64,000 nt of DNA from contig CAYTUN010000001.1 in assembly GCA_964441315.1 (NCBI GenBank), positions 12,807 to 76,806 of the forward strand, written 5' to 3'. The notes below the pieces were generated by a model. It had not been told where the DNA came from. It searched no databases and saw only the letters and a program-made list of their open reading frames with translations. This DNA is from an uncultured Gammaproteobacteria bacterium. Lineage in GTDB: Bacteria; Pseudomonadota; Gammaproteobacteria; CAYTUN01. Both the position numbers and the translations under genes were made by a program. The stretch's first letter is position 1, and the number at the start of each line of letters is the position of its first letter. This document shows, one piece after another, positions 3,135 to 45,672 of the stretch.

Positions 3135-3570
3135 GGTTAGTTTGACGCGGGAAAGACGATTTAGTGATTGCCCTAGTTTGAAGCAATTTACTTGTTGGGT
3201 TAATGCTGTTTTTGAGGAATTGGAAGTTGAAAAAAAGTATGAGATTAATATTCATTTAGCTAATCATGAAAGTGCAAGAAAAATAAACTTTGACTATCGC
3301 AATAAGAACTATGCAACCAACATACTTTCTTTTAATTATGACCTTTTGCACCAAAAACATATTGAAGCAGGCGAATTAATTTTTTGCCCTGAAGTGATTA
3401 TGAAAGAAGCAGAAAATGAACATAAAGACTTAACCTCACATTGGATGCATTTAACCATCCACGGCACGCTACATATTTTAGGACTTGACCATGCAAACAA
3501 TAATCAAGCTGAAATAATGGAAAGCTATGAAAAAATAATCATAACCAACCTAGTAAAATTTTCTAGTTAA
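3112..3570 (+). CDS. ybeY: rRNA maturation endoribonuclease YbeY
   Basis: 152 aa; metal-binding HxxxHxxxxxH motif (HLTIHGTLHILGLDH); position after phoH. Confidence 0.9.
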   Translation: MKNLSVVKVSLTRERRFSDCPSLKQFTCWVNAVFEELEVEKKYEINIHLANHESARKINFDYRNKNYATNILSFNYDLLHQKHIEAGELIFCPEVIMKEAENEHKDLTSHWMHLTIHGTLHILGLDHANNNQAEIMESYEKIIITNLVKFSS

Positions 3571-6500
3571 AATAGCCTACTAACAGAATTGGACCTACGA
3601 TCTAGTTGTTTTTCCATAGTTGCAAAAGCTTCCTCTACTGGCCCCGAAAAAGACAAATGATTATCACTTAGCGACTTTCTTAATAGCGTTTTTAGTCGCA
3701 AAAGCGATATTTTATTATTTACCATATCACTTTTATCTAAAAAATACTGGCCAGATAAAATACTTACTAGCTCATTTTTTAATTTATAATTTCTTATCCC
3801 CGATTGGATCAACATCACCATAACTTTAGAGTAAATTAAATCACGGTATTTTTCTTCAAATCTATCTCCCAATGTGGCATTCAAATATGAAACAACTCCT
3901 TGAGCAATGATAGGTTTATTATTAGGCGGCAAAGAACAAAAATCATTCAGCCACAAGTTAAAATTTTCATAGAACTTTTGCGATCTACTGCCAGATGAAA
4001 AACTGTTTGCAATTAAAGAACTTTCGTCATCATGAGAATAAAAAAGTCTCTCCAAAAATAATGGGATAAGTTTTACGTTATTTAAAACGATATTTATTAA
4101 AGGGAGTCGTAAATTTTTTAATAATGCATCTGAATCATCAGTATCATCGTGGCCAACACACAAATTAAAAACACAAGATAAAATAACTCTTGCATTAGAC
4201 TCTAAGACCGCAGACTCATCAGCATGCAATAACTGACATAATTTTCTCTCGACCAGATTAATTAAAACTTGCAACATACTTGCTGTAAATGTTTTTCTCC
4301 GTGCGAAAACCGCTACAATTAAGGTCATATGACTTGGATCCTCGGACTTCGTCAACAACTCTACAAACAGGCTGGATCTTTTCAATATTTTTTGCTCACA
4401 AAAATTTAATAAATAATTTAAATGTAGTTGTATAATAGCAGGGGATTGATAAAAAATTTTACGCCATAAATCATCACTTATTTTTTCACCTTTAGTTTTT
4501 ATAGTAGGTGATTGCATAGTTAGCAAGAGTGTGGCAACAATTTTTTTTACTTGTGGTTTATGCTGAGTAATGAGCCAAGCATCAGTATAAATATCTACAA
4601 CGTTAGACTCGTGCTTTATCTTATATATTAAATTAGTCCGAATATTAGAATTAGTCTTTTTAGCAGCATCTAACAGCGCACTGGTTAAATAGTCTTGAGC
4701 AAAACATCTTGCTGTTGATAACAGATTTTTTATATGGGTAGAAAAAAGATTGCTAGATGCCCCATATACTCTTTCGAGCATTTTAGATTTTAATAAACGC
4801 GGAGCTTCTTTAAACATAGAATATGCCATCAAAAAAGCATAAACGTTATCATGCGGTAAAGCAGAAGCTCGGCTTTGTAGTGACAATAGCAAACCTGTTT
4901 CTACCTCACCATCATTTAGCAAAGTATGCTGTGCTTTATAAAGAAGGATCCTAGCTAGTATTATCAAGGGAAACGTTGAAACCATGTCTACTATTATTGA
5001 TTTTTGAATTAGTTGATCAAAAACTTCAAATAAAGAAGATTCATCACCCCTCAAAAATAAGTAATAAAAGTATAATGCATAATATTCTTGGTTTAGAGGG
5101 ATGGAGCTATATTTGCGAGTTGATTTTTTATCAGAGCTTTTATTTTTTTCTAATAACTGATATCCATATTCAAAAACAGGCAAGTTTTGAAAAAAAATTT
5201 GAAATAAACTCTGATGATCCACGGCATCATCTTTTAAATCTATTTGTTTATCATGCTGAATCATGTAATAAAATAACTCCACCTTCAGCTTATCAGACAA
5301 GATTTCAGCAATGGATAATTTATTAGTCACAGCAACAAATAGAAAATAATGAATTATAGTGTTTCTCAGAGGATGATCGGACCAATATTTTAATATACAC
5401 TCCAACCACTGATTCAATTTCCTTTTAAACAGATCGGGCTCACGTTTCGAAAGTTCTTCTACAAATTTAGCCACCTCGAAAAAATTGGCACGACTCATAC
5501 ATGCGTCGATCACGCATCTATCGGGTATATTATTTAATAGAATATCAGAAAGCAAAGGATAACGTATTATTTTATAGCTACTATCATCGATTGATAATAG
5601 ATAATATTTTTTTAATGAAATTAATAACTTATAAGATTTTTCAGGCTCTAACTTACTAAATATTGCATTAATAAACACGCTTCTAGATTTACTTTCCAAT
5701 TGACCTAAAAATTTATTAAAGATATTTATATCATCTTGATCATCATAATCAACACTTTCAGAAATTGAATCAGCTATTATAAACAATATGCTAAGACTTT
5801 CTTTATTTACACCCTGATCAAATTTTTTTCTTAAAAAATTTATTAGAATACATAATTGCATGTTTCTATTTTTGACAAAATCATCGTACATAACATTAAA
5901 AAAAGATCTGGCAAATACATTATTTGAATTATTATTTTGTAACGCGATTAAATTTTTAAAAAAATCTTCCAGATTAGCTGAAAATGATCGCCTAGTTGGA
6001 TTGTTATCTCTAAAGACTTGTAAAGCTTCTAAAGACTTATCATAACTAATTTCTATAAATTTGCCTGTTTTTATTTCTTCTGGACTGGTAGTTTGATTGG
6101 CATGAGCATGAACAATACTTTGATCAAATAAATTTATCGATTCAGCTATAAATTCAAATTGCCTAATGTCTACAAATCGAAATAAAGAATTCTCGAAGTT
6201 AATTCTTAAAAGATAAAATAAATAATCATAAAAAATCTCCAGAAAGTACTTTAGCAGCGGCCCAGATTCAAAAAACACTGATGGCTCGTAGCTAAAATCT
6301 CCCTCTAAAGGAATAAACCTATAAAAAATTTTGAAATCAGCTTTTTTGATTTCAAAATTTTTCCAATCTGATAGAATTTTTTCTAATGTGCCAAGACCAG
6401 ACAACAATTGACACAAATATTCAAACTTATACGCACCATCATAGCTTTTATAGTGACCAATTCTTCTTTGAAAGACATTACTACTCAAATCAATGAATCT

Positions 6501-8579
6501 ATCATAAATTTCAGATCGATGTATTTTATTTTTTTCAAATACTTCTATCCACCACAAAAAATCATTCAAATTTCTATAATCAATTTTTATAGCTTCAATT
6601 ACCTCGGACAATTTAAAAATAAAAAAATTTACTTTGATTAATTTTTTATAATCTTGATTTTTCTCTACTTGATCAAGCAGGTCATATAAAGGGTCATATA
6701 AATCTTTTAAATCTTTAAAAAATTTAAGCAAAGAAGAATATCTAGATAATCTATTTTTTTGAGCATCATCGCTAACTAAAAAATTACGAATAAGATACAA
6801 AAAACGCGTTATTCTGCTTCTAATTTTCAGTATTTTCACAACAGGCATCAATTTTTCTTCCACAAATTCTCTCGACTTACCAAGCAAATCACCTTCAATC
6901 TCTTTTAGTTTTTCTGATATAATTTTACTTTTACGTTCAGCTTCAAAATATACTTGGACTAAATGAACTACTTTTAATTCAATACCAGAAACTGGCAAGT
7001 TTACATTTTTATCAAAAATTAATTTATAAAAATTAGTAGTATCAATGAAAACTTCACCATAAGTGTCATGAGGATAAATTATTTCAAAACCCAATATTAA
7101 TATAGAATCGTATATGGCTATATCGAGAGGTATTTTCCTAACCAAACCATCAAAAAAATTATTAAAAAGTTCTTCTATTGCGCTTTGTTTTTGAATTAAT
7201 TTATCTAAAGAAGAAGCGTGGGGTCCCCTTAATAGAGATTCTACTTGTAGACAAGCCTGATCAAAAGTTAAGATATCTTTATTAGGATTTTTATCCTGGG
7301 TTTTTTGTTTATTAGCAGGAAATAAATACTCATATAAAGGGACTTTAATCCGTAAAATATCGAGATAAATTGTTTTTATCAATGAAAACAAGTAATTGTT
7401 ATTATAAAGAAATTTTCTTCCAAAAATTGATTCGGTAATAGCTAATCCTTGAAAAATCTGATAAAAATCAAAAATTATTTTTCTGGGATAGTCTATATTC
7501 AACTGCTTTAAGTCTTGATCATTTCTAAAAGCATGAATAGCAATTTTTTGTAATTGTACTGTGGCACGTCTTATTAATTTTCCCTGCTCGACTAAAATTG
7601 GCTCTATTGCCTGGATTATAGCAGGAAGTATGCGCCTGATACGGCTTATAAATATGGGGTTTTTAACCATTAAATGATTGATGCCATCTCTCTCAATTAA
7701 TAATTTTTTGAATATAGCTTTAATTGATGTTTTTTTTGATTTTTTACTTTCTGTTATTATATTTTTTGATAGTTCTTCAACTATATGCCAAAGTGATACA
7801 GAATTAATTGATTCACCATTTAAAATTTCAAAAATTTTTACATTATTATCTGCTATATTTTTTAATATTACTAATAAATTTATCTCTGATAACAACCTAG
7901 ATACATTGTTAAATTGAATAAGAAACCTGTTAATCAGAGTTAAGTTAGCAGATTTATAAGAATTTGGTATATCTTCTTGAGATGTTATTTTTCTCACTTC
8001 CTCTGTAGTAATATTGATTGATGCAGCAAACTTGTTTATTTTTTCTATATTAAAAGCAAGCCTAGTAGCCTCGCCCAAAAGGGGGCCTTTCAAAGCTTCA
8101 ATGCCCTCCATTTTAGCAAGCGTTATATTTAAAGAAGTTTGATAATTTTTTGATTCTGATATTTCAAAAAAATTTTTTTTATTTTTACGAGAGCGGGTCT
8201 GTTCTAGCTGCTCTTCATAAATGCGGAATGCTGTATAAAAAAGCATACCACTGTTATCGTAATCATAAAGCCTTAAATATACTAATTTTAATATATTTCT
8301 AATTTGTTCAAGAGTTTCTATAGTATAGCTATTAATTAGAATATCAAAACTTTTTACACTATCTTCATTTTTTCTAAAAATCCATTTTTCAATGATATCT
8401 TCAAATTCTTCAAATTCGAGCGCAGAATCATTACTCAATCCGACTTTTAACTCGTCCAGTATATGTGCAAATAATTTTTTTTTTGAAATACTGTCAAGCA
8501 CATATACAATTTCATTGACAAGATTGTCTTTTAAACTTGTTTCTAATGCTACGACATTTAATATATTACTATCTTCCAT
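3567..8579 (-). CDS. giant hypothetical protein (1670 aa), alpha-helical, no recognisable domain; candidate secreted effector
   Basis: Uninterrupted 5-kb ORF at about 30% GC against about 43% in the flanks; Asn/Lys/Ile/Leu-rich; no signal peptide, TM segment or internal repeats; Glu-containing C-terminal tail (…GPVEEAFATMEKQL…SRLF); overlaps the ybeY stop by 4 nt, convergent. Confidence 0.6.
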   Translation of the reverse strand: MEDSNILNVVALETSLKDNLVNEIVYVLDSISKKKLFAHILDELKVGLSNDSALEFEEFEDIIEKWIFRKNEDSVKSFDILINSYTIETLEQIRNILKLVYLRLYDYDNSGMLFYTAFRIYEEQLEQTRSRKNKKNFFEISESKNYQTSLNITLAKMEGIEALKGPLLGEATRLAFNIEKINKFAASINITTEEVRKITSQEDIPNSYKSANLTLINRFLIQFNNVSRLLSEINLLVILKNIADNNVKIFEILNGESINSVSLWHIVEELSKNIITESKKSKKTSIKAIFKKLLIERDGINHLMVKNPIFISRIRRILPAIIQAIEPILVEQGKLIRRATVQLQKIAIHAFRNDQDLKQLNIDYPRKIIFDFYQIFQGLAITESIFGRKFLYNNNYLFSLIKTIYLDILRIKVPLYEYLFPANKQKTQDKNPNKDILTFDQACLQVESLLRGPHASSLDKLIQKQSAIEELFNNFFDGLVRKIPLDIAIYDSILILGFEIIYPHDTYGEVFIDTTNFYKLIFDKNVNLPVSGIELKVVHLVQVYFEAERKSKIISEKLKEIEGDLLGKSREFVEEKLMPVVKILKIRSRITRFLYLIRNFLVSDDAQKNRLSRYSSLLKFFKDLKDLYDPLYDLLDQVEKNQDYKKLIKVNFFIFKLSEVIEAIKIDYRNLNDFLWWIEVFEKNKIHRSEIYDRFIDLSSNVFQRRIGHYKSYDGAYKFEYLCQLLSGLGTLEKILSDWKNFEIKKADFKIFYRFIPLEGDFSYEPSVFFESGPLLKYFLEIFYDYLFYLLRINFENSLFRFVDIRQFEFIAESINLFDQSIVHAHANQTTSPEEIKTGKFIEISYDKSLEALQVFRDNNPTRRSFSANLEDFFKNLIALQNNNSNNVFARSFFNVMYDDFVKNRNMQLCILINFLRKKFDQGVNKESLSILFIIADSISESVDYDDQDDINIFNKFLGQLESKSRSVFINAIFSKLEPEKSYKLLISLKKYYLLSIDDSSYKIIRYPLLSDILLNNIPDRCVIDACMSRANFFEVAKFVEELSKREPDLFKRKLNQWLECILKYWSDHPLRNTIIHYFLFVAVTNKLSIAEILSDKLKVELFYYMIQHDKQIDLKDDAVDHQSLFQIFFQNLPVFEYGYQLLEKNKSSDKKSTRKYSSIPLNQEYYALYFYYLFLRGDESSLFEVFDQLIQKSIIVDMVSTFPLIILARILLYKAQHTLLNDGEVETGLLLSLQSRASALPHDNVYAFLMAYSMFKEAPRLLKSKMLERVYGASSNLFSTHIKNLLSTARCFAQDYLTSALLDAAKKTNSNIRTNLIYKIKHESNVVDIYTDAWLITQHKPQVKKIVATLLLTMQSPTIKTKGEKISDDLWRKIFYQSPAIIQLHLNYLLNFCEQKILKRSSLFVELLTKSEDPSHMTLIVAVFARRKTFTASMLQVLINLVERKLCQLLHADESAVLESNARVILSCVFNLCVGHDDTDDSDALLKNLRLPLINIVLNNVKLIPLFLERLFYSHDDESSLIANSFSSGSRSQKFYENFNLWLNDFCSLPPNNKPIIAQGVVSYLNATLGDRFEEKYRDLIYSKVMVMLIQSGIRNYKLKNELVSILSGQYFLDKSDMVNNKISLLRLKTLLRKSLSDNHLSFSGPVEEAFATMEKQLDRRSNSVSRLF

Positions 8580-8672
8580 ATTTTTTTCCTTTTTACATTA
8601 GTTATTAATTTTTTTATTTTATTACTATTTCTGCTAAAAACACTAATATGACGCTGTATCATTAACAATTGA

Positions 8673-11600
8673 TTAGAAACGCACTCCAACACTTGTGTGA
8701 GTGAGTTTTATAGACTCTTCCAACAAAGAATTCAGTTCCTGCTTTATTTCATTTCCCCAAGGTTTGATTGCGATATTAGATTCAAGCTTGTTTAATTCAT
8801 CCGAATTCAAGCAGTCGAAAAAGTTAATTATTCCCCGCCTAACTTCCGATGAGAAAAAATGAGTGGGAGACATAAACCTGTTGCGTGTTGTCAGATTAGC
8901 TTTTGGTATTAAACTATCCAGCATGCAAACAAAAACATCACTTTTATTATATTTCTCGTGCCATTCATAAGTAGCAGATTTGATATAATTTATCATATCA
9001 AGAAATAAAACGTGTTTACTATTCTTATCTAAGTCGAGCTTAGAGTATTCTCCAAGCCAAAACTTGTAATCAGAAAAAAATATTCTTTTCATGAATGCAT
9101 ATTTGTCAATTTTTCCACTAGCCACTTGCTGCCATAGAAGCAGTGCAGCTGAGATATACCCTGCCTTGTCCAGGTTATACTGCGGTTTTACAAGATCATT
9201 GAAATAGTAAGTCAAAGCAGCATCAGTGCTAATCTCATGTTCTGGTTGTGACGCTGAATTAAAAAGCCGGATAACCCAATCACATATAGCATGAGATTTT
9301 TGATGATCCAGCTCTGTCTCTACTTCAGACTTTTTATCTGAAAAATTTTTTCTGGGAACCTCTTCTAAAAAAAATCTTATTATTATCAATGATTGTTCGG
9401 TATTAGCTCGTTTCAATAAATGGATAAACAGAATTGTGGTATTTAATCTAGGTTTAAACTGAAGCAATTGATAAAAACGCACCTCAATTTCTTCATTTTT
9501 CGAAAAAATATTCTCCCAATATAAATCTTGATCAATGCACGCACCTTCCGTTAAAAGCAAAGGAGATTTCATGTGTGAAAGGAATTTAGTGAGTTGACGC
9601 ACTTCTCCTTCATTGTATTTATAAAAATATAGCTGCTCCACCTGTTGATAAAACTGCCGCTTCACTTCCGACATGGCAGCGAGCATATCTGCTTTAGCTG
9701 GCGCGCGATAAGCATAATTTTTAATAGCGACCTCTAAATTATCCAGCATAAAGATATTATGATAAAAAGCTGCCGCAAAACTAATTGCGGAAATTTTATA
9801 TTGAAAAGCCTCAGGATCATCCCAAAGCCCTGCTAGTAGCTCGCCTTGTTTTTTCAAATCTAGTAAGCGCAATAATTCAACTGCCCACAGCCAATTGCCA
9901 AACTCAAACTGTAAAGTTGAAATCTTCACTGCTGCTATTTCCTGAACATTTAGCATGCTTTTGATGGCATAGCCTGCATGTGGTGTAACTAGCACCGGTT
10001 CAGTATTAATGTTTATCAGACCAATCAAATTCGAAACACATTTTTTGATTTTGATTGGATCAAATTTACTTAATACACAATAATGTAAGAAAGTACCAAG
10101 GGAATACTTTTGCAAATCTTCTTGATCAAACATTTCACTTGGGTGATAAATTCTAGCGTTAAAAATGGCCACTAATTTTAACGATTGCTTCAGCTCTTCC
10201 AGAAGTTCATCTTTTTTCAGACCAGCAATTTCAATATTTGAATCATAAAAGTCCATCAAACGTATGAATAAGGATTTGAGTTCATCATATTTGACAAATT
10301 CAATATTTTTTTCATCCAAGTGTGGCCTTAAAACTATTGAGCCTCTTAGAAGAAATGTTGCAATCGTTGTATAAAAAGGGTGCTCACGCCAAACTGAGTT
10401 GAGCCGGCTAAACCTTATTCTTAGCTCCTGAAAGTTGGCGGGCTTATGCTGGGACATTGCTTCTAATATTTCTTCCTGGGTTTCCAAACTAAACAAATAA
10501 TCAACTTCACAAAAACCTGGAAATTCTTGGCGATCAGGAAAATCTCTTGGGTAAACGACTGTTTGCCAATTCGTAGCATCTAGACGTGAATGATGGGGGC
10601 TGACTAGCACTAAAAAATGATAACGGTTTTCTGGCTTTAATAATGCAAAAACTTTATTGATAATGTATCGACTGGTAAAATTTTTAACATGCCTGAGTAA
10701 TTCATTTAACCATTTTAGATGTAATCGCCAGTTTGGCTCACGCAAATTATCAATAAAATAATCTTTTAAAGCTTTACTGAATATATCTAGCAATAAGTAA
10801 TCGTTTTTTTTACCTAAATATCTAATTAAATGCGTTAAATGAATAAAAAATTTAAAATCTTTAAGAGAATCATAAAAATAATTATATATGGGTGTATTTT
10901 CAGTTCCAGGATGTAGTGGATTTTGCAACAGGTGTAGTAAATATTGTCTACTACGTTTAAATGTGCTTGATTTGAGGTTATTTATACCCTGATTACCAGT
11001 ACGCTCTCCTATTAACGCATGTATATAACTAATCGTTTTGTCATCAGATGGTCGGCGTGAATTTAGAGCAGATTGCACTTGCTGTTCTGGTATTACTACT
11101 TTTTCAAAACATAAAGCGTCAGCAAAAAGTAATCTATGCGCCAATTTAGTAACTAAATCACGAGAGTAATTCAAAACTTCTTCAAAAAATTTTTTAAGCA
11201 GGCTTTTCTCCAAATTGTCAGTTGCCAAAATGGTTCGCCTTACAAATGTTTGCAATTGTTTAAAATCGAAACTATCTGCTGAAAATTTTAGTATATTTAC
11301 CGGCTGCATTATGTGTTCTAAAGCTGCAGCCCATAAAAGTAGATCGAGAACATGTTGTTGTCTGAATTGAAAATCACCATCCTGATTATAAACTGCCTTC
11401 AGCCGACATTCTGCAAATTTTTCCAACACTTTATGAAAATGCTCGACTGTTAATGGTTGGGACATAAAACCAAAAAAATCTTTAAATTTGATAAACTTGC
11501 TTTCCACTACACCAATCATATAGAGAGTGTTGAAAATAAGGTTGGAAAATTTTATATATCGCTGGCACTCAATATAATGCAATGTTCTTGATAACGAAAT

Positions 11601-19746: not shown

Positions 19747-20877
19747 TTATTTTTTCATGGAATCGCTGGGGGGAACAAGCTTCTCCAAGCTCTGATGAAA
19801 TTCTTCCAGAAATTTTTTAAAACGACCATCATTATCTTCAACCCAACTTAATTGCTCTTGGTTATATTTATCTGTTCCCTCATTACCAAAGGTGGAAATA
19901 TAAAATGATTTTATAGCACTTGTATATTGATCGTATAAATCTTTAGCTTTTGGGTCTGCTTTGGTTTCTTGGATTTTTTCCAAGCTTTGCATAAAATCGC
20001 TTATAGATTTAATGGTATCTTCAACTGACAATGACCGCAAAGTTTGTAATATTATTGCGCAATTTTTAGTTACTGTTTCATTAAGGACACTGTTTTTTTT
20101 GAAATTTTTCGGATCAGATATACTTAATAAATCACCCTTTACTTTTGATTTTCCGCTCATAAAGGACTTCAAAGCGATTTGTGTTCTTTGGAATCTCGTA
20201 TTTTCTTTCTCAACTGACTCTATAACCTGATCTTCTTCATCAGAAGAAGCTTTCATTTCTTTTTCTTTTAATTGAATAGTATTTGAAATCGGATCGTAAA
20301 GTATTTCTTCTATCATTTTTAGCCAACCAAAATCTATATAAGCTTTAGCAGCCAAATCTGATAATAGTATTATATTATTATCTTCTTCTCTTTTAAAAGG
20401 CTGTAATGAATCCTGAATATAAAGAGTATAGGCAATATATTCGTCTAAGTAAGTTTTGCTATTTGTGTCTAAATTTTGTAATGAAAAAATCAATTCTGGT
20501 TTTTCTTCTTTTAACGATTCAATTATAATTCTTATATTACTACCCAGGATATGACGTCGGACTTCTTTTGTTATTGCTGCATTTTGCTTAAGAAAATTTT
20601 CTTTTAATGATTTTATAGTTTCTGAATATAGTGTTAAAAACAATTCTTTATTTTTGTCTCTATGTTTATTTTCCAAGTCATTTAATTCATCTAGAAATTT
20701 CTTAGATTTACTGAGATTCAATCGCATTTCATCTAATATTTTTTTATAGGATTCTTTTTTTTCTTCTGTTTGAAATTTAATGCCTTTAAAGTCTTTTGTA
20801 TTTTGTCTTAATGCATCATATCTAGACTTATACTCTTCTGATATTTCTTTAGCACTTTTTGATTTTTCTTCTGACAT
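19747..20877 (-). CDS. hypothetical Lys/Glu-rich coiled-coil protein (376 aa); effector-like
   Basis: Highly charged, predicted coiled-coil, no signal peptide; low GC; followed by a 35-bp perfect hairpin plus U-run. Confidence 0.55.
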   Translation of the reverse strand: MSEEKSKSAKEISEEYKSRYDALRQNTKDFKGIKFQTEEKKESYKKILDEMRLNLSKSKKFLDELNDLENKHRDKNKELFLTLYSETIKSLKENFLKQNAAITKEVRRHILGSNIRIIIESLKEEKPELIFSLQNLDTNSKTYLDEYIAYTLYIQDSLQPFKREEDNNIILLSDLAAKAYIDFGWLKMIEEILYDPISNTIQLKEKEMKASSDEEDQVIESVEKENTRFQRTQIALKSFMSGKSKVKGDLLSISDPKNFKKNSVLNETVTKNCAIILQTLRSLSVEDTIKSISDFMQSLEKIQETKADPKAKDLYDQYTSAIKSFYISTFGNEGTDKYNQEQLSWVEDNDGRFKKFLEEFHQSLEKLVPPSDSMKK

Positions 20878-41645: not shown

Positions 41646-42347
41646 ATGAAAAATATCCTAAAAGAAATGCTTTATTTCGCCCTACCCAATCACTGCCTGC
41701 TTTGTCAAAGGCGCGCCGCAAAAACGCAGCCGCTGTGTGATTTATGTGAATACGAAAGCGATAAATTCATTCCAGGCTGCCAACGTTGCGGATTAATCCT
41801 GTCAAACGCTGCAAGCGTTTGTGGTGCTTGTCAAAAGCGCCCACCCAGTTATTCCCGATTCATTGCTGGTGTGCCTTATCGATTTCCCTTTGATCACTGT
41901 GTGACACAACTAAAATTTCATCAACGCTTTTTAATGGCGGATATTTTAGCTTATTTACTTGCTAAGCAAGTAAATAAAGTGCCTTCTGTCATTCCCGATT
42001 TTATTATTCCGGTGCCTTTGCATATTACGCGTTTAAAAGAACGCGGTTTTAATCAAGCGGATTTCATTGCTAGACGTTTGCAAAAATATTTGCCGGTTAA
42101 AATCTTGCAGGGGGCTTGTCATAAGATTAAAGCGACACCGGCACAAACGGAATTATCGGGCAAGCAACGGGTAAAAAACCTGCGTGGGGTTTTTGCTGCA
42201 GAAAAATGCTTTGATGGTTTGCATTTGGCAATTGTCGACGATGTGGTGACGACCGGGGCTACCGTTGATGAATTAGCAAAAGTTTTAATTAAAAATGGGG
42301 CTAGGCAAGTTGATGTGTGGACGGCGACAAGGGCGTTGCGGTTTTGA
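41646..42347 (+). CDS. comF: ComF-family protein (phosphoribosyltransferase domain)
   Basis: N-terminal zinc-finger cysteines (CxxC…CxxC) and C-terminal PRTase motif IVDDVVTTGAT. Confidence 0.85.
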   Translation: MKNILKEMLYFALPNHCLLCQRRAAKTQPLCDLCEYESDKFIPGCQRCGLILSNAASVCGACQKRPPSYSRFIAGVPYRFPFDHCVTQLKFHQRFLMADILAYLLAKQVNKVPSVIPDFIIPVPLHITRLKERGFNQADFIARRLQKYLPVKILQGACHKIKATPAQTELSGKQRVKNLRGVFAAEKCFDGLHLAIVDDVVTTGATVDELAKVLIKNGARQVDVWTATRALRF

Positions 42348-43656
42348 ATTCCGCTGAAATTTTGGGAAATTTCAGCACGAATTCCATATACTCGCCTTCC
42401 ATCGAATTAGCTTCAATCGTGCCACCAAAACTTTGCATTGCCAGACGACAAAATGCCAGGCCAATACCGGTGCCATTTTCTTTTTGGCTTTGATAGCCGG
42501 CAAACATGCGTGCGACAATGACTTCGGAGGCGCCGCCTGCCGTATCTTTGATGCGAAGCAAATTAACATTGTCCTGGCTTTCCGTGGTCAAATAAATTTC
42601 ACCGCATTGTTTCAAGCGGAGCTGCTCAAATGCATTGTTTAATAAATTAAACAAAATGCGTGTCATTAATACTTCATGCCCAAAGAAATCAAATTCTGCC
42701 TGTTGTTGCCAATGCAGTTTTTCACGCTCGCCTGCGCGGAAGGGGTAGCGTTCCAACGCATGGTGTAGACAGTGCCATATTGAGCAAGGCGTTAAGTCAT
42801 CCTGGCTCAATTCTTTTGCGAGAGTTTTACTGAGTGTTTTTAAAGTGGTGTTGATAAATTGCTGCATTTCCGCAATCGTTTCCGTCATGCGCTGGCCGGT
42901 TAGGGCCAGATATTCTGGCGTCAGCTGTGGCGGTAATTGGCGGATAAAATTCTCACCGACTGTACTTGTTGAAAGTGATTGCTGACAGGCTTTCAAACAA
43001 AGTGGCCAATATTCTTTAACGGCTTCTGCTTCCATCGCCAGCATGGCGATCGGAGTGCGTAGGTCATGGGCAATGCTGCCTGCCAATACCATCACCGCCT
43101 GCCTTAATTCCTCTTCAGCCTGTGCTTTGGCTTGCTCTTCGGCTGCTTGTGCTAAAGCCACTTTTTCGCGTTCTTCAGCGATTTTTTGGGCGGTGATGTC
43201 GAAGGAGATGCCCACAATACCCACAATTTCTTTTTTATGGTTACGCAGCGGTACTTTTTGTGAAAGGTAAATCCTGGGGCCATTTGCCATGACTGCATAT
43301 TCTTCAGCAACATGTGGTTCGCCAGTCTCAATTACTTTAGCATTCAGCGCATTCAAATGCTCAGCCTGGTCTTTCCAGATCATATCAAAATTGGTTTTAC
43401 CAACAATTTCATCTCGTGATTTAAAATTGGCATTTTTTGCCTGTAGATCATTGCATCCTAAAAATATATTGTTTGTATCCTGCCAATACACGTGGCCTGG
43501 CATAAGCGAAATAATATTTTCATAGTAATCCTTGAGATCTCTTAGTGCGACTCGATGTTGAATTTGCTGTTTTTTTAATTGCTTTTTGAGTCCATTAATT
43601 TTTTCTTTGTAAGATGATAAAGCGATGCTTCTCGGTTTAATTGTTGGCTTTGTCAT
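42301..43656 (-). CDS. cytoplasmic PAS-domain sensor histidine kinase (orphan: no response regulator nearby)
   Basis: N-terminal coiled-coil, PAS fold (aa 50-165), H-box SIAHDLRTPIAML, N/G boxes (LLNNAFEQL; GTGIGLAFCRL); no TM; start overlaps the upstream gene stop by 4 nt. Confidence 0.85.
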   Translation of the reverse strand: MTKPTIKPRSIALSSYKEKINGLKKQLKKQQIQHRVALRDLKDYYENIISLMPGHVYWQDTNNIFLGCNDLQAKNANFKSRDEIVGKTNFDMIWKDQAEHLNALNAKVIETGEPHVAEEYAVMANGPRIYLSQKVPLRNHKKEIVGIVGISFDITAQKIAEEREKVALAQAAEEQAKAQAEEELRQAVMVLAGSIAHDLRTPIAMLAMEAEAVKEYWPLCLKACQQSLSTSTVGENFIRQLPPQLTPEYLALTGQRMTETIAEMQQFINTTLKTLSKTLAKELSQDDLTPCSIWHCLHHALERYPFRAGEREKLHWQQQAEFDFFGHEVLMTRILFNLLNNAFEQLRLKQCGEIYLTTESQDNVNLLRIKDTAGGASEVIVARMFAGYQSQKENGTGIGLAFCRLAMQSFGGTIEANSMEGEYMEFVLKFPKISAEFKTATPLSPSTHQLA

Positions 43657-44831
43657 ATTTTGCTCGTTGTTATAAATAATTCATCTGATGAAGAATTTTC
43701 CGCTAAAGCTCTTAATAGTGCTTCTTTATCTTCTCTAGGAATATGTGCTTCTGTAACAGCCTTACCTAGTATATACAGTCGCGAAATACTTTGATTACTA
43801 CTAAAAATACCCAAATCACCAAGTGTTTTAGCAGGGAAGAAAGGAACATTATGCGTGATCTCAGGTAAACTATCCGACGATAATGAATCATTTGAACGTG
43901 AGTAAGTTTTCATCAAAATACTCACAAATCCCCAGCGGGCTACCTTATGAGGTTCAGGCGTATAACTAATTAATTTTTCTGATAAATCATCCTGCACCTC
44001 TGTCGCCTTAAAGGTTTCAGAGCGAATAAAATGTATATGGGCGGGCTCAAACCATTTCGGCATTTTTCCAGCATAAAAAATTAAATTGTAGTTGCCTTTC
44101 GCAGCCACAGGCACTAATTGGGTTTCTGCAGTAAGGTATTTTTCAGAAAAAACTAATTTATCCTGTTTTGGCTCATTACTCTTTCTTTTAGAATATTCTT
44201 TTGCAGTTTCTTCCACTGCACTTTTAATTTTACTGATAGAATCGCAGTATCCCATAAAGGTTTTTTCATCGACTAATTCATTACTGCTATATTTTTCTAT
44301 CCATTGACGCCAACAGATTATTTCAAATTTATCCTTGCTGATGGAATTTATTGCACTAATTTTTTTTTCTAAAAGATTAACGCTGGCTTCATCTTGATCA
44401 TTACCATGAGCGTCTTTGATATTGGTGATTTCCGGGGAGATAAGCTTATTTTCTAATGTTTTTTCTGTTAAACCAGAAATCTCAAGAAAATATTTGAAAT
44501 GTTTTTTAATCCAATCACTACCTAAGCCATAAGCTTTTCTTTTAAACTCATCCGCATCTTCATCATTTTTATGATTAGCGGCAGCCATTAAATTATATTT
44601 GTGCAACTCATCAACGACCAAAAATGTGACGAATCTAAATTGCTGAATCACATTTCTAGCAATCACACCAAAATTTTCTTCTTGGTAAGATTTATTTCCA
44701 GAAATGCTAATGAGGACTAAAGCACGAGCTTCTTTAAGCTCTTCGGGTGAAAAAATTTTTTTTGCAGCGCTATCAAACTCAGCAGTCAAAATTCCATTCA
44801 AGGGTTTCTTTTTGTGTTTAGGCATAAACAA
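43653..44831 (-). CDS. hypothetical protein (392 aa), translationally coupled to the PAS histidine kinase
   Basis: Long ORF with no recognisable motifs, hydrophilic, no signal peptide; ATGA-type overlap with the downstream kinase. Confidence 0.5.
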   Translation of the reverse strand: MFMPKHKKKPLNGILTAEFDSAAKKIFSPEELKEARALVLISISGNKSYQEENFGVIARNVIQQFRFVTFLVVDELHKYNLMAAANHKNDEDADEFKRKAYGLGSDWIKKHFKYFLEISGLTEKTLENKLISPEITNIKDAHGNDQDEASVNLLEKKISAINSISKDKFEIICWRQWIEKYSSNELVDEKTFMGYCDSISKIKSAVEETAKEYSKRKSNEPKQDKLVFSEKYLTAETQLVPVAAKGNYNLIFYAGKMPKWFEPAHIHFIRSETFKATEVQDDLSEKLISYTPEPHKVARWGFVSILMKTYSRSNDSLSSDSLPEITHNVPFFPAKTLGDLGIFSSNQSISRLYILGKAVTEAHIPREDKEALLRALAENSSSDELFITTSKI

Positions 44832-45108
44832 GCTCTCTTATAAAGAAAGGCAGCTAATATCATGTCATTTCTTATTTTTATTATCGGCTTGTTAGCTGTT
44901 GAATTTTTATATTTGTACTTTTTAAAAGCATCCGTGCTGAATTTGAAAAATTCCTGGAATTCAAATTTAAGTTAATATATTTAGCGATTTGAACTCTATT
45001 AAGTTCGTTGGTGCTTTTTACGCTATACTGATTCAAAAAAATTTTTTAGCCTAAGTTAAAAATAGCGCTTAGAAAAAAATTACTTTAACTATCGCTCGCG
45101 ATGACAAT

Positions 45109-45672
45109 TTACGCCACCGGCAAAGTCACCCCCATCTGCTTCATGTATTTTCCACCACGGTCTTTATAGGAAACTTCACAAACTTCATCCGTTTCCAAAA
45201 ATAGCATTTGTGCCACACCTTCATTCGCATAAATTTTTGCGGGTAAATTAGTGGTATTGGAAAATTCCAAGGTCACATGCCCTTCCCATTCGGGTTCGAG
45301 TGGTGTCACATTTACAATAATACCGCAACGTGCGTAAGTCGACTTGCCAACGCAAATCGTTAAGACATTGCGTGGAATGCGGAAATACTCAATCGTCCTG
45401 GCAAGGACGAATGAATTTGGCGGAATGATGCAAACATCGGCTTTTACATCAATAAAACTTTTGCCATCAAATGCTTTGGGGTCGACAATGGCGGAATTAA
45501 TATTGGTAAAAATTTTAAATTCATCGGCGCAGCGAACATCGTAACCATAACTTGAGGTGCCATAGGAAATAATTTTGCCTTTTTCATTATAACGGACTTG
45601 TCCGGGTTCGAATGGCTCTATCATTCCATGCGCCGCCATGCGGCGCATCCATTTGTCTGATTTGATTGGCAT
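45109..45672 (-). CDS. dcd: dCTP deaminase
   Basis: 187 aa; full-length match to the Dcd pattern (…[10 protein letters not shown]…; dUTPase-like fold). Confidence 0.92.

Follow-up and report, generated by a model that had tools for sequence, protein, structure and literature searches.

A divergent cyclodipeptide synthase gene coupled to a cytoplasmic PAS histidine kinase gene: a candidate signalling pair in an uncultured gammaproteobacterium

In several known bacterial signalling systems an autoinducer synthase is paired with a histidine kinase, as is LqsA with LqsS/LqsT/LqsR in Legionella, and as are CqsA/CqsS and LuxM/LuxN in Vibrio. Cyclodipeptide synthases (CDPSs), the enzymes that turn charged tRNAs into small cyclic dipeptides, have so far been studied mainly as natural-product enzymes. 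Two of them, CDPS 28 and CDPS 29, make cyclo(Ala-Ala) (cAA), an activity for which Jacques et al. 2015 are reportedly also to be credited. CDPS 28 of Legionella longbeachae (LLB_2968, WP_003635969) was found experimentally to be a cAA synthase (95% cAA), as was CDPS 29 of Fluoribacter dumoffii (WP_010654300); both belong to the XYP subfamily, and the Legionellaceae cAA group carries a number of insertions as well as a further C-terminal region (Gondry et al. 2018, PMC5816076). For the Legionella CDPS clade the product cAA is known, while its function and the extra C-terminal region lack an explanation. The general idea of a connection between PAS domains and CDPSs is not new, since PAS domains have already been noticed to be frequent near CDPS genes, with quorum sensing suggested as the reason (Skinnider et al. 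2018, PMC5767969). Here we analyse a stretch of 64,000 nucleotides (nt) from an uncultured Gammaproteobacteria bacterium (contig CAYTUN010000001.1, positions 12,807 to 76,806), called the window throughout, and a two-gene operon on its minus strand. We are highly confident that this operon encodes a divergent tRNA-dependent CDPS of the Legionellaceae XYP clade and, translationally coupled to it, a cytoplasmic kinase whose PAS domain is of a clade that accompanies this CDPS clade from genome to genome. New here are the specific involvement of one PAS clade, the mosaic make-up of the kinase, and how far conservation of the pair extends.

A previous, sequence-only reading of this DNA had described two minus-strand open reading frames (ORFs), 43653-44831 and 42301-43656, overlapping by 4 nt, and the sequence confirms this (an ATGA overlap; Table 1). 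The first was taken to encode a 392-amino-acid (aa) protein without recognisable domain, possibly the ligand-binding or sensory partner of the kinase, or its phosphorylation target. The ORF indeed exists, but its likely start codon gives a slightly shorter product, and the lack of a domain holds only for Pfam searches with the single sequence, in which no model matched, PF16715 included. The NCBIfam model TIGR04539 (tRNA-dependent cyclodipeptide synthase) reaches E=0.004 and 16.7 bits, below its cut-off of 45, and PF16715 touches just one of the 64 members of the clade. As the protein stays below the curated thresholds of both databases, its membership of the CDPS family rests on profile and structure evidence. 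Searched as a single sequence against the PDB, it gives two matches, both of them CDPSs (5ocd, E=0.049), and a k-mer-seeded search of 5.8 billion proteins recovered itself alone. An exhaustive HMMER search of 1.84 billion representatives returned 88 relatives of 350-520 aa and 25-36% identity, recruiting the Legionellaceae XYP CDPS clade and that clade alone. The family profile, built from 64 aligned sequences out of these 88, matches 5ocd (3e-28), 5mlq (1e-23) and 5mlp (2e-16), and in the PDB nothing but CDPSs.

The structure prediction points the same way. A single-sequence AlphaFold2 (AF2) model was unusable, with a predicted local distance difference test (pLDDT) of 38; the model made from the family alignment, which was used instead, has a pLDDT of 85.2 and a predicted TM-score (pTM) of 0.77. 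It has the Rossmann fold of class-I aminoacyl-tRNA synthetases, and Foldseek against the PDB places CDPSs on all of ranks 1 to 43, with Tyr- and Trp-tRNA synthetases from rank 44. Fdum-CDPS (5OCD) shares this fold, with a Foldseek E of 1e-10 and a TM-score of 0.77 relative to the target, and Nbra-CDPS (5MLQ) and Rgry-CDPS (5MLP) are the solved XYP enzymes matched by the family profile. Compared with the solved XYP CDPSs, the window protein is about 130 aa longer, through a helical insertion and a tail, and only 12-15% identical in structural alignment. The catalytic residues S40, Y230, E234 and Y251 are the equivalents of S37, Y178, E182 and Y202 of AlbC; S40, E234 and Y251 are invariant among the 64 relatives, and Y230 is conserved in at least 90%. 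Profile and model thus place the protein, as a very divergent member, in the XYP CDPS clade of the Legionellaceae; with its catalytic residues intact, it is a predicted cyclodipeptide maker. Remote-homology and structure prediction, the two checks that had been proposed for the 392-aa protein, hence both lead to a CDPS. Its being a pseudogenised remnant is rejected in view of the full length, the intact motifs and the confident fold, and a role as sensory partner or phosphorylation target is not likely for a CDPS-family enzyme with all four catalytic residues in place; it is therefore a candidate signal producer and not a receptor partner. Furthermore, because current Pfam and NCBIfam models miss this whole clade, some 90 protein clusters labelled 'hypothetical' can now be named as CDPSs.

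CDPS 28 and CDPS 29 are like the window CDPS in clade, insertions, C-terminal extension and catalytic Ser/Tyr/Glu/Tyr. CDPS 28 is colinear with it from residue 1 (25% identity, E=4e-20) and fits the consensus of the window CDPS family. The insertions and extra C-terminal region that mark the cAA group are present, the former as a helical insertion into the core at about aa 121-165 of the AF2 model, the latter as the 84-aa tail. The substrate pockets, however, differ. For the cAA group the motifs are LLLAW[AGS][VI][IV] in pocket P1 and xxFRGxL in P2 (Gondry et al. 2018, PMC5816076); when aligned to CDPS 28, the window CDPS departs from both, with LLLVWLVI against LLLAWAVI of the cAA enzymes in P1 (A67V, A185L), and TEYRGMP against TNFRGIL in P2. 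Therefore cAA cannot be assumed to be the product, and a rule-based prediction of cAA was dropped, as two P1 and several P2 residues differ. We file the enzyme, on its sequence features, as a putative member of the cAA-group clade for which cAA is not predicted, and can only infer that its product would be a cyclodipeptide of small residues. Of the XYP signature (X40, Y202, P203) it has the Y202 equivalent, with an Ala at P203 (Y251-A252-G253), giving Y-A-G where CDPS 28 and 29 have Y-P-G; Y-A-G also occurs in 6 of 63 other aligned relatives and Y-T-G in one, and the best PDB matches of the family profile are all XYP enzymes. It further has D-E-L-H-K-Y-N instead of the otherwise invariant D-E-I-Y-W-H-N.

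In the tail, residues 319-344 form a disordered linker (pLDDT <50), and three short helices lie within residues 344-389. The linker holds an FF motif (F329-F330) of which F330 is nearly invariant in the 64 sequences, while beyond this motif the tails are highly variable in length and sequence, polar, and rich in Ser and Glu. A Cys lies within the last six residues of 24 out of 132 CDPS family members, compared to about 6% expected from a Cys content of 1% (P0002-P0088 plus loci L001-L047, counted with relatedness ignored), and three members have strict CaaX endings (P0004 CSQI, P0018 CSSS, P0022 CCRA).

The second gene was described earlier as a soluble kinase without transmembrane segments, with one PAS domain and a classic HisKA/HATPase core. 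Most of this stands: no hydrophobic segment is present (the maximum of the 19-residue Kyte-Doolittle window is 1.23), and Pfam recognises PF08448 as the single PAS domain (E=8e-9), together with HATPase_c (E=2e-14). The boxes are intact, with the H-box His at residue 197, the N box at 338-345, G1 at 371-377, F at 384-390 and G2 at 395-402, but the HisKA domain stays sub-threshold (17.7 bits versus a cut-off of 26.9). Judged by these motifs, the protein is plausibly an active, soluble, cytoplasmic PAS histidine kinase. With four receiver queries run by phmmer against all six-frame ORFs, no receiver domain was found in the 64-kb window (nothing below E=0.2), in agreement with the earlier statement that no response regulator is encoded within 20 kb; the receiver-free span is about 42 kb on one side of the kinase and about 19 kb on the other, making it an orphan within the window.

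The two halves of this kinase do not tell the same story. While its PAS domain is 50-73.5% (by another count 64-73.5%) identical to those of Legionella kinases linked to CDPSs, the rest of the protein reaches 16-24% identity with the same kinases in forced alignment, or cannot be aligned. In BLAST comparisons of the core with 34 CDPS-linked Legionella cores, 30 gave no match at E<1e-3, and the other four gave weak partial matches of 35-43 bits. Instead, the core is 30-49% identical to PAS_4-HATPase kinases that lack a receiver and make up a large family in uncultured Gammaproteobacteria, with full-length relatives of this type at 35-54%, and its best curated match is LuxN (NF041945, E=1.6e-28). 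By these comparisons the kinase is a mosaic, a PAS domain of the CDPS-linked clade on a core of different ancestry. When 152 PAS domains were arranged in a neighbour-joining tree, the one from the window fell within a 29-member clade, 28 members of which are CDPS-linked, and all 37 CDPS-linked PAS domains fall within one clade of 45 members. A kinase-side search for the most similar PAS domains yielded two further kinases that clearly neighbour a CDPS (P0183, P0185), and one, P0188, with a probable link, its neighbour being a weakly CDPS-like protein of 523 aa (hhalign 83%). Outside the 45-member clade stand three kinases with other neighbours: P0093, P0101 and a second kinase in locus L043. 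P0093 and P0101 are close full-length relatives of the window kinase, and the former lies next to an unrelated 508-aa protein (hhalign probability 1%), the latter downstream of the gene for an adenylation plus carrier protein. Since these neighbours are not CDPSs, the link follows the PAS clade and not the whole kinase family. As to the surroundings of P0101, its gene lies 140 nt downstream of a stand-alone adenylation and carrier protein (AMP-binding, PP-binding; L043 3781-7698), with a second PAS kinase of its family another 4 kb along, and kinases of this family may often accompany genes for small-molecule biosynthesis.

The GC content at third codon positions (GC3) also changes within the operon, from 0.27 in the CDPS gene to 0.35 in the N-terminus and PAS domain of the kinase and 0.47-0.48 in its dimerisation and histidine phosphotransfer (DHp) and catalytic (CA) domains, against a mean of 0.39 (standard deviation 0.07) for the ORFs of the window. 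In the mosaic kinase, the step in GC3 and the break in similarity fall at the same place, and the rise from CDPS through PAS to kinase core is compatible with a composite origin.

How widely the pair is kept was seen from a locus scan with the CDPS sub-alignment, using one genome per species, which gave 37 Legionella or Legionellales loci; three further CDPS loci, fetched from the representatives, were pooled with these, and four of the pooled loci end at a contig edge. At 33 loci a homologue of the window kinase (phmmer E 1e-37 to 1e-62) adjoins the CDPS gene divergently, across a spacer of 132-404 nt. Among these is L. longbeachae, the CDPS of which is 99.5% identical to CDPS 28, so that the CDPS 28 locus, like the window, has an adjacent PAS kinase, although in divergent order where the genes of the window are co-directional and overlapping. 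The co-directional arrangement is found in the window, P0002 and L048, where P0002 has a CDPS followed by a hybrid kinase, and L048 a CDPS, a double-PAS kinase and a response regulator of 336 aa, in this order; in the window, P0002, L044 and L048 the kinase gene comes after the CDPS gene and is transcribed together with it. In L046 and L047 a MatE exporter gene precedes the kinase and the CDPS is convergent. Beyond the pair, the genes belong to 16 different clusters per side, and the pair is therefore kept as a unit while its surroundings change. Moreover, the CDPS-linked kinases have at least five output architectures (e.g. a receiver (REC), REC plus histidine phosphotransfer (Hpt) domain, no REC, or double PAS). 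These locus comparisons show an association of the CDPS clade with the PAS clade that has been maintained in evolution, synthase and sensor staying together across genomes as those of an autoinducer pair would.

Some of these loci deserve a remark of their own. The MatE efflux pump is encoded directly upstream of the CDPS-linked kinase and in the same direction (L046 3536-7354, L047 3618-7629), and is a possible exporter of the cyclodipeptide. Related kinases either carry their own receiver or adjoin a response regulator of about 336 aa. Such regulators, of 336 aa (L048 8196-9206) and 338 aa (L041 7256-8272), lie beside receiver-less kinases of the window kinase's family; both consist of a receiver and an unknown C-terminal domain, and they are 29% identical to each other. 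Along its whole length, the one from L048 matches PDB entry 6sy9 ('Response regulator', E=9e-34), an entry that we believe to be LqsR. In L031 of Legionella tunisiensis (7914-9584), three separate ORFs hold the N-terminus, core and receiver of the CDPS-linked hybrid kinase, which points to either a pseudogene or an assembly error.

So what might such a kinase be sensing? Our favoured reading, held tentatively, is that the CDPS makes an untailored cyclodipeptide which the cytoplasmic PAS kinase senses. The CDPS would take two aminoacyl-tRNAs carrying small residues and release the cyclodipeptide untailored, there being no tailoring genes in the vicinity. This small diketopiperazine would build up in the cell, probably diffusing between cells, and would bind the PAS domain, altering autophosphorylation at His197; the phosphoryl group would then pass to a response regulator encoded elsewhere, of which the protein of about 336 aa in a related locus, believed to be LqsR-like, may be an example. 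Through these steps the pair would act like an autoinducer synthase and its cognate sensor kinase, and the cytoplasmic location of the sensor could let it read, in addition, the flux through the CDPS, that is, the supply of charged tRNA. That the CDPS product is the PAS ligand, in an autoinducer-like or charged-tRNA-reporting circuit, we infer by analogy. In its favour, the PAS domain is the constant element amid changing gene order, flanks and kinase core; the analogies come from Vibrio and Legionella, with their synthase-sensor pairs, from the likeness of the core to LuxN/CqsS, from the exporter found at some loci and from the L048 regulator. As in the Lqs, Cqs and LuxM-LuxN pairs, the synthase gene of the window adjoins a dedicated histidine kinase gene. 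The chemistry is, however, unrelated, a tRNA-dependent CDPS standing in place of the pyridoxal phosphate-dependent or acyl-transfer enzymes of those systems, and the sensor is a cytoplasmic PAS protein where LuxN, CqsS and LqsS are membrane receptors.

One PAS lineage tracking an enzyme provides a concrete receptor candidate for a cyclodipeptide. It is conceivable, though we rate it as rather unlikely, that the CDPS and PAS kinase form an undescribed cyclodipeptide signalling circuit, widespread in Legionella-type bacteria, in which the charged-tRNA pool is turned into a permeant diketopiperazine that is read by the PAS domain. Amino-acid sufficiency and cell density would then merge into one phosphorelay, with LqsR-like regulators as outputs in some lineages and ArcB-like phosphorelays in others. 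If this were true, it would be a second chemical signalling system in Legionella-type intracellular bacteria beside LAI-1/Lqs; it would give cyclo(Ala-Ala)-type synthases of Legionella their first physiological role and a CDPS product its first defined receptor, and it would help settle whether diketopiperazines are genuine bacterial signals.

We must take into account several points that weigh against sensing of the product. No kinase adjoins the CDPS in L001 and L005, both of which have adequate flanks, and a single genus contributes most of the 33 divergent loci, which for that reason do not count as 33 independent events. The PAS domains (about 70% identity) are far more conserved than the CDPSs (25-34%), and show no co-variation with the pocket residues of the CDPSs, a pattern that product sensing explains no better than would a shared cofactor or an unrelated cue. 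Furthermore, the PAS and linker region matches the model NF008302 of ArcB, a redox sensor (E=4.8e-24), and claims of cyclodipeptide signalling in other bacteria are disputed. The kinase could, as an unlikely alternative, sense an unrelated intracellular cue (such as redox or oxygen, as ArcB does) and control cyclodipeptide production by phosphorelay, while the cyclodipeptide itself would have its effect elsewhere, with the host amoeba or competitors as possible targets. Besides the missing co-variation and the ArcB match, which the kinase of L. longbeachae gives over its full length (E=5e-93), the divergent layout of the 33 Legionella loci is typical of regulator-target pairs. Host-directed roles have also been proposed for CDPS products of intracellular bacteria (Aravind et al., PMC2922099). 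Some CDPS-linked kinases share the ArcB-like HisKA-HATPase-REC-Hpt layout, but all scores against the ArcB model stay well under its equivalog cut-off (84.6 against 838 bits), transmembrane anchors are absent, and the window kinase has no REC or Hpt. In most loci no DNA-binding component is linked to the pair, the kinase gene lies downstream of and co-transcribed with the enzyme gene in the window, P0002, L044 and L048, rather than upstream or divergent, and that specifically one PAS clade stays with the CDPS even as kinase cores are exchanged speaks for a link of a more direct kind.

Such a link need not run through a diffusible product. Nearest to the 'sensory partner' of the sequence-only reading is an improbable arrangement in which the CDPS tail with its FF motif binds the PAS kinase, making the enzyme a co-sensor of aminoacyl-tRNA availability or placing it under control of the kinase. 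The C-terminal extension, like the neighbouring PAS kinase, is a peculiarity of this clade of CDPSs (PMC5816076; loci described here), the FF motif is nearly invariant within a disordered linker, and translational coupling in the window favours equal stoichiometry; yet the tail is otherwise very variable where the PAS domain is highly conserved, and the divergent and convergent layouts need no co-translation. The variability and the polar, Ser/Glu-rich character of the tail are also what could be expected of a secretion signal, if the CDPS were secreted or translocated to use aminoacyl-tRNAs of the host and the kinase merely timed its expression. We consider this still more improbable: the terminal Cys residues and three CaaX endings of the family, another window protein that ends in the prenylation motif CIIL, and the looks of the organism and its relatives, which resemble intracellular Legionella-type bacteria, speak for it, but the window CDPS itself has no CaaX ending, the enrichment in Cys is modest and counted with relatedness ignored, and CDPS 28 and 29 make cAA inside E. 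coli and thus function in a bacterial cytoplasm (PMC5816076). That an orphan kinase lies beside an accessory gene by chance, without functional link, is very hard to credit. The GC3 values, 0.27 for the CDPS and 0.47 for the kinase core, which suggest that the two have separate histories, and the other neighbours of the closest full-length kinase relatives would agree with it; the 4-nt overlap, the recurrence of the pair in three orientations and among 16 flank types, and the placement of all CDPS-linked PAS domains in a single clade oppose it, and as far as comparative data go this explanation is already contradicted.

Table 1. Positions of the CDPS-kinase operon and its parts within the window
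Feature	Position	Strand	Details and basis
CDPS gene	43653..44825	-	390 aa from ATG 44825; mechanical ORF start TTG 44831 (392 codons, 43653-44831)
CDPS catalytic core, aa 1-306	43908..44825	-	Rossmann-like; AF2, Foldseek, HMM alignment to 5ocd/5mlq
CDPS C-terminal extension, aa 307-390 (84 aa)	43656..43907	-	AF2, family alignment
ATGA overlap, 4 nt (kinase start ATG over CDPS stop TGA)	43653..43656	-	direct sequence reading
Sensor histidine kinase gene	42301..43656	-	451 aa, soluble, without receiver domain; Pfam, NCBIfam, hydropathy, motif positions
PAS domain, aa 45-166, CDPS-associated clade	43159..43524	-	identity and neighbour-joining tree
DHp and CA core, aa 186-451	42304..43101	-	BLAST, NCBIfam
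Spacer between dcd and CDPS gene	44826..45108	-	promoter-like site 45002-44974; inverted repeat 44940-44967

For the CDPS gene, the ATG start is favoured over the mechanical one by an AAGAGAG Shine-Dalgarno-like motif 8-13 nt upstream; it yields the same product as the NCBI call (P0001) and recreates the N-terminus M-P-K-x-(K/R) of the family. One co-transcribed two-gene operon with the kinase second, as the sequence-only reading had it, is supported. In the upstream spacer, the promoter-like site matches at 9 of 12 positions, and such sites are fewer there than in shuffled sequences. The inverted repeat that had been put forward as an operator does exist, as AATTTGAA-12 nt-TTCAAATT or with arms of about 12 nt and a 3-nt bulge, but 169 of 500 dinucleotide shuffles of the AT-rich 277-nt spacer hold an equal or better one, and neither the repeat nor any other motif was found in common with 33 related upstream regions. 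Being no better than chance and not shared, it is not supported as an operator site, either statistically or by comparison. No Rfam family matches in 42000-45400. Among the divergent kinase-CDPS spacers of other loci (L004-L040), a 12-mer, AAAAAATAACCA, is present in 16 of 33, and may be either a shared regulatory site or a mere reflection of species relatedness.

Housekeeping genes flank the operon, dcd, mrp, metG, rnfB and nth to one side and comF, bioC, dxs and ispA to the other; cyclodipeptide-tailoring enzymes were not found among the neighbouring genes of the window. At its 3' end, the kinase gene overlaps the 3' end of a convergent comF-like gene (41646-42347, +) by 47 nt (42301-42347), and a terminator-like hairpin lies on the plus strand at 42324-42339, within this overlap. 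The DXS protein of the window is 92% identical to that of one contig and at most 68% to all else, and the named relatives of the window CDPS family are from Legionella, Tatlockia or Legionellales.

Elsewhere in the window, the C-terminus of a 244-aa protein (39732-40466, +) that has no Pfam domain reads ...KDCCIIL. Its last four residues, CIIL, form a canonical CaaX motif for prenylation, an ending characteristic of Legionella-type effectors to which the host attaches a lipid. The lowest GC content of the window (0.285; GC3 0.21) is that of a 376-aa ORF at 19747-20877 (-), with no Pfam match. Two giant ORFs in tandem, 3567-8579 (-) and 8673-13694 (-), encode proteins of 1670 and 1673 aa without Pfam domain, and are likewise low in GC (0.29 and 0.34; GC3 0.22 and 0.28). 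The two are faintly colinear, with 23% identity over 318 aa (E=0.07) and 29% over 104 aa (E=0.009), and may be ancient paralogous effector-like proteins.

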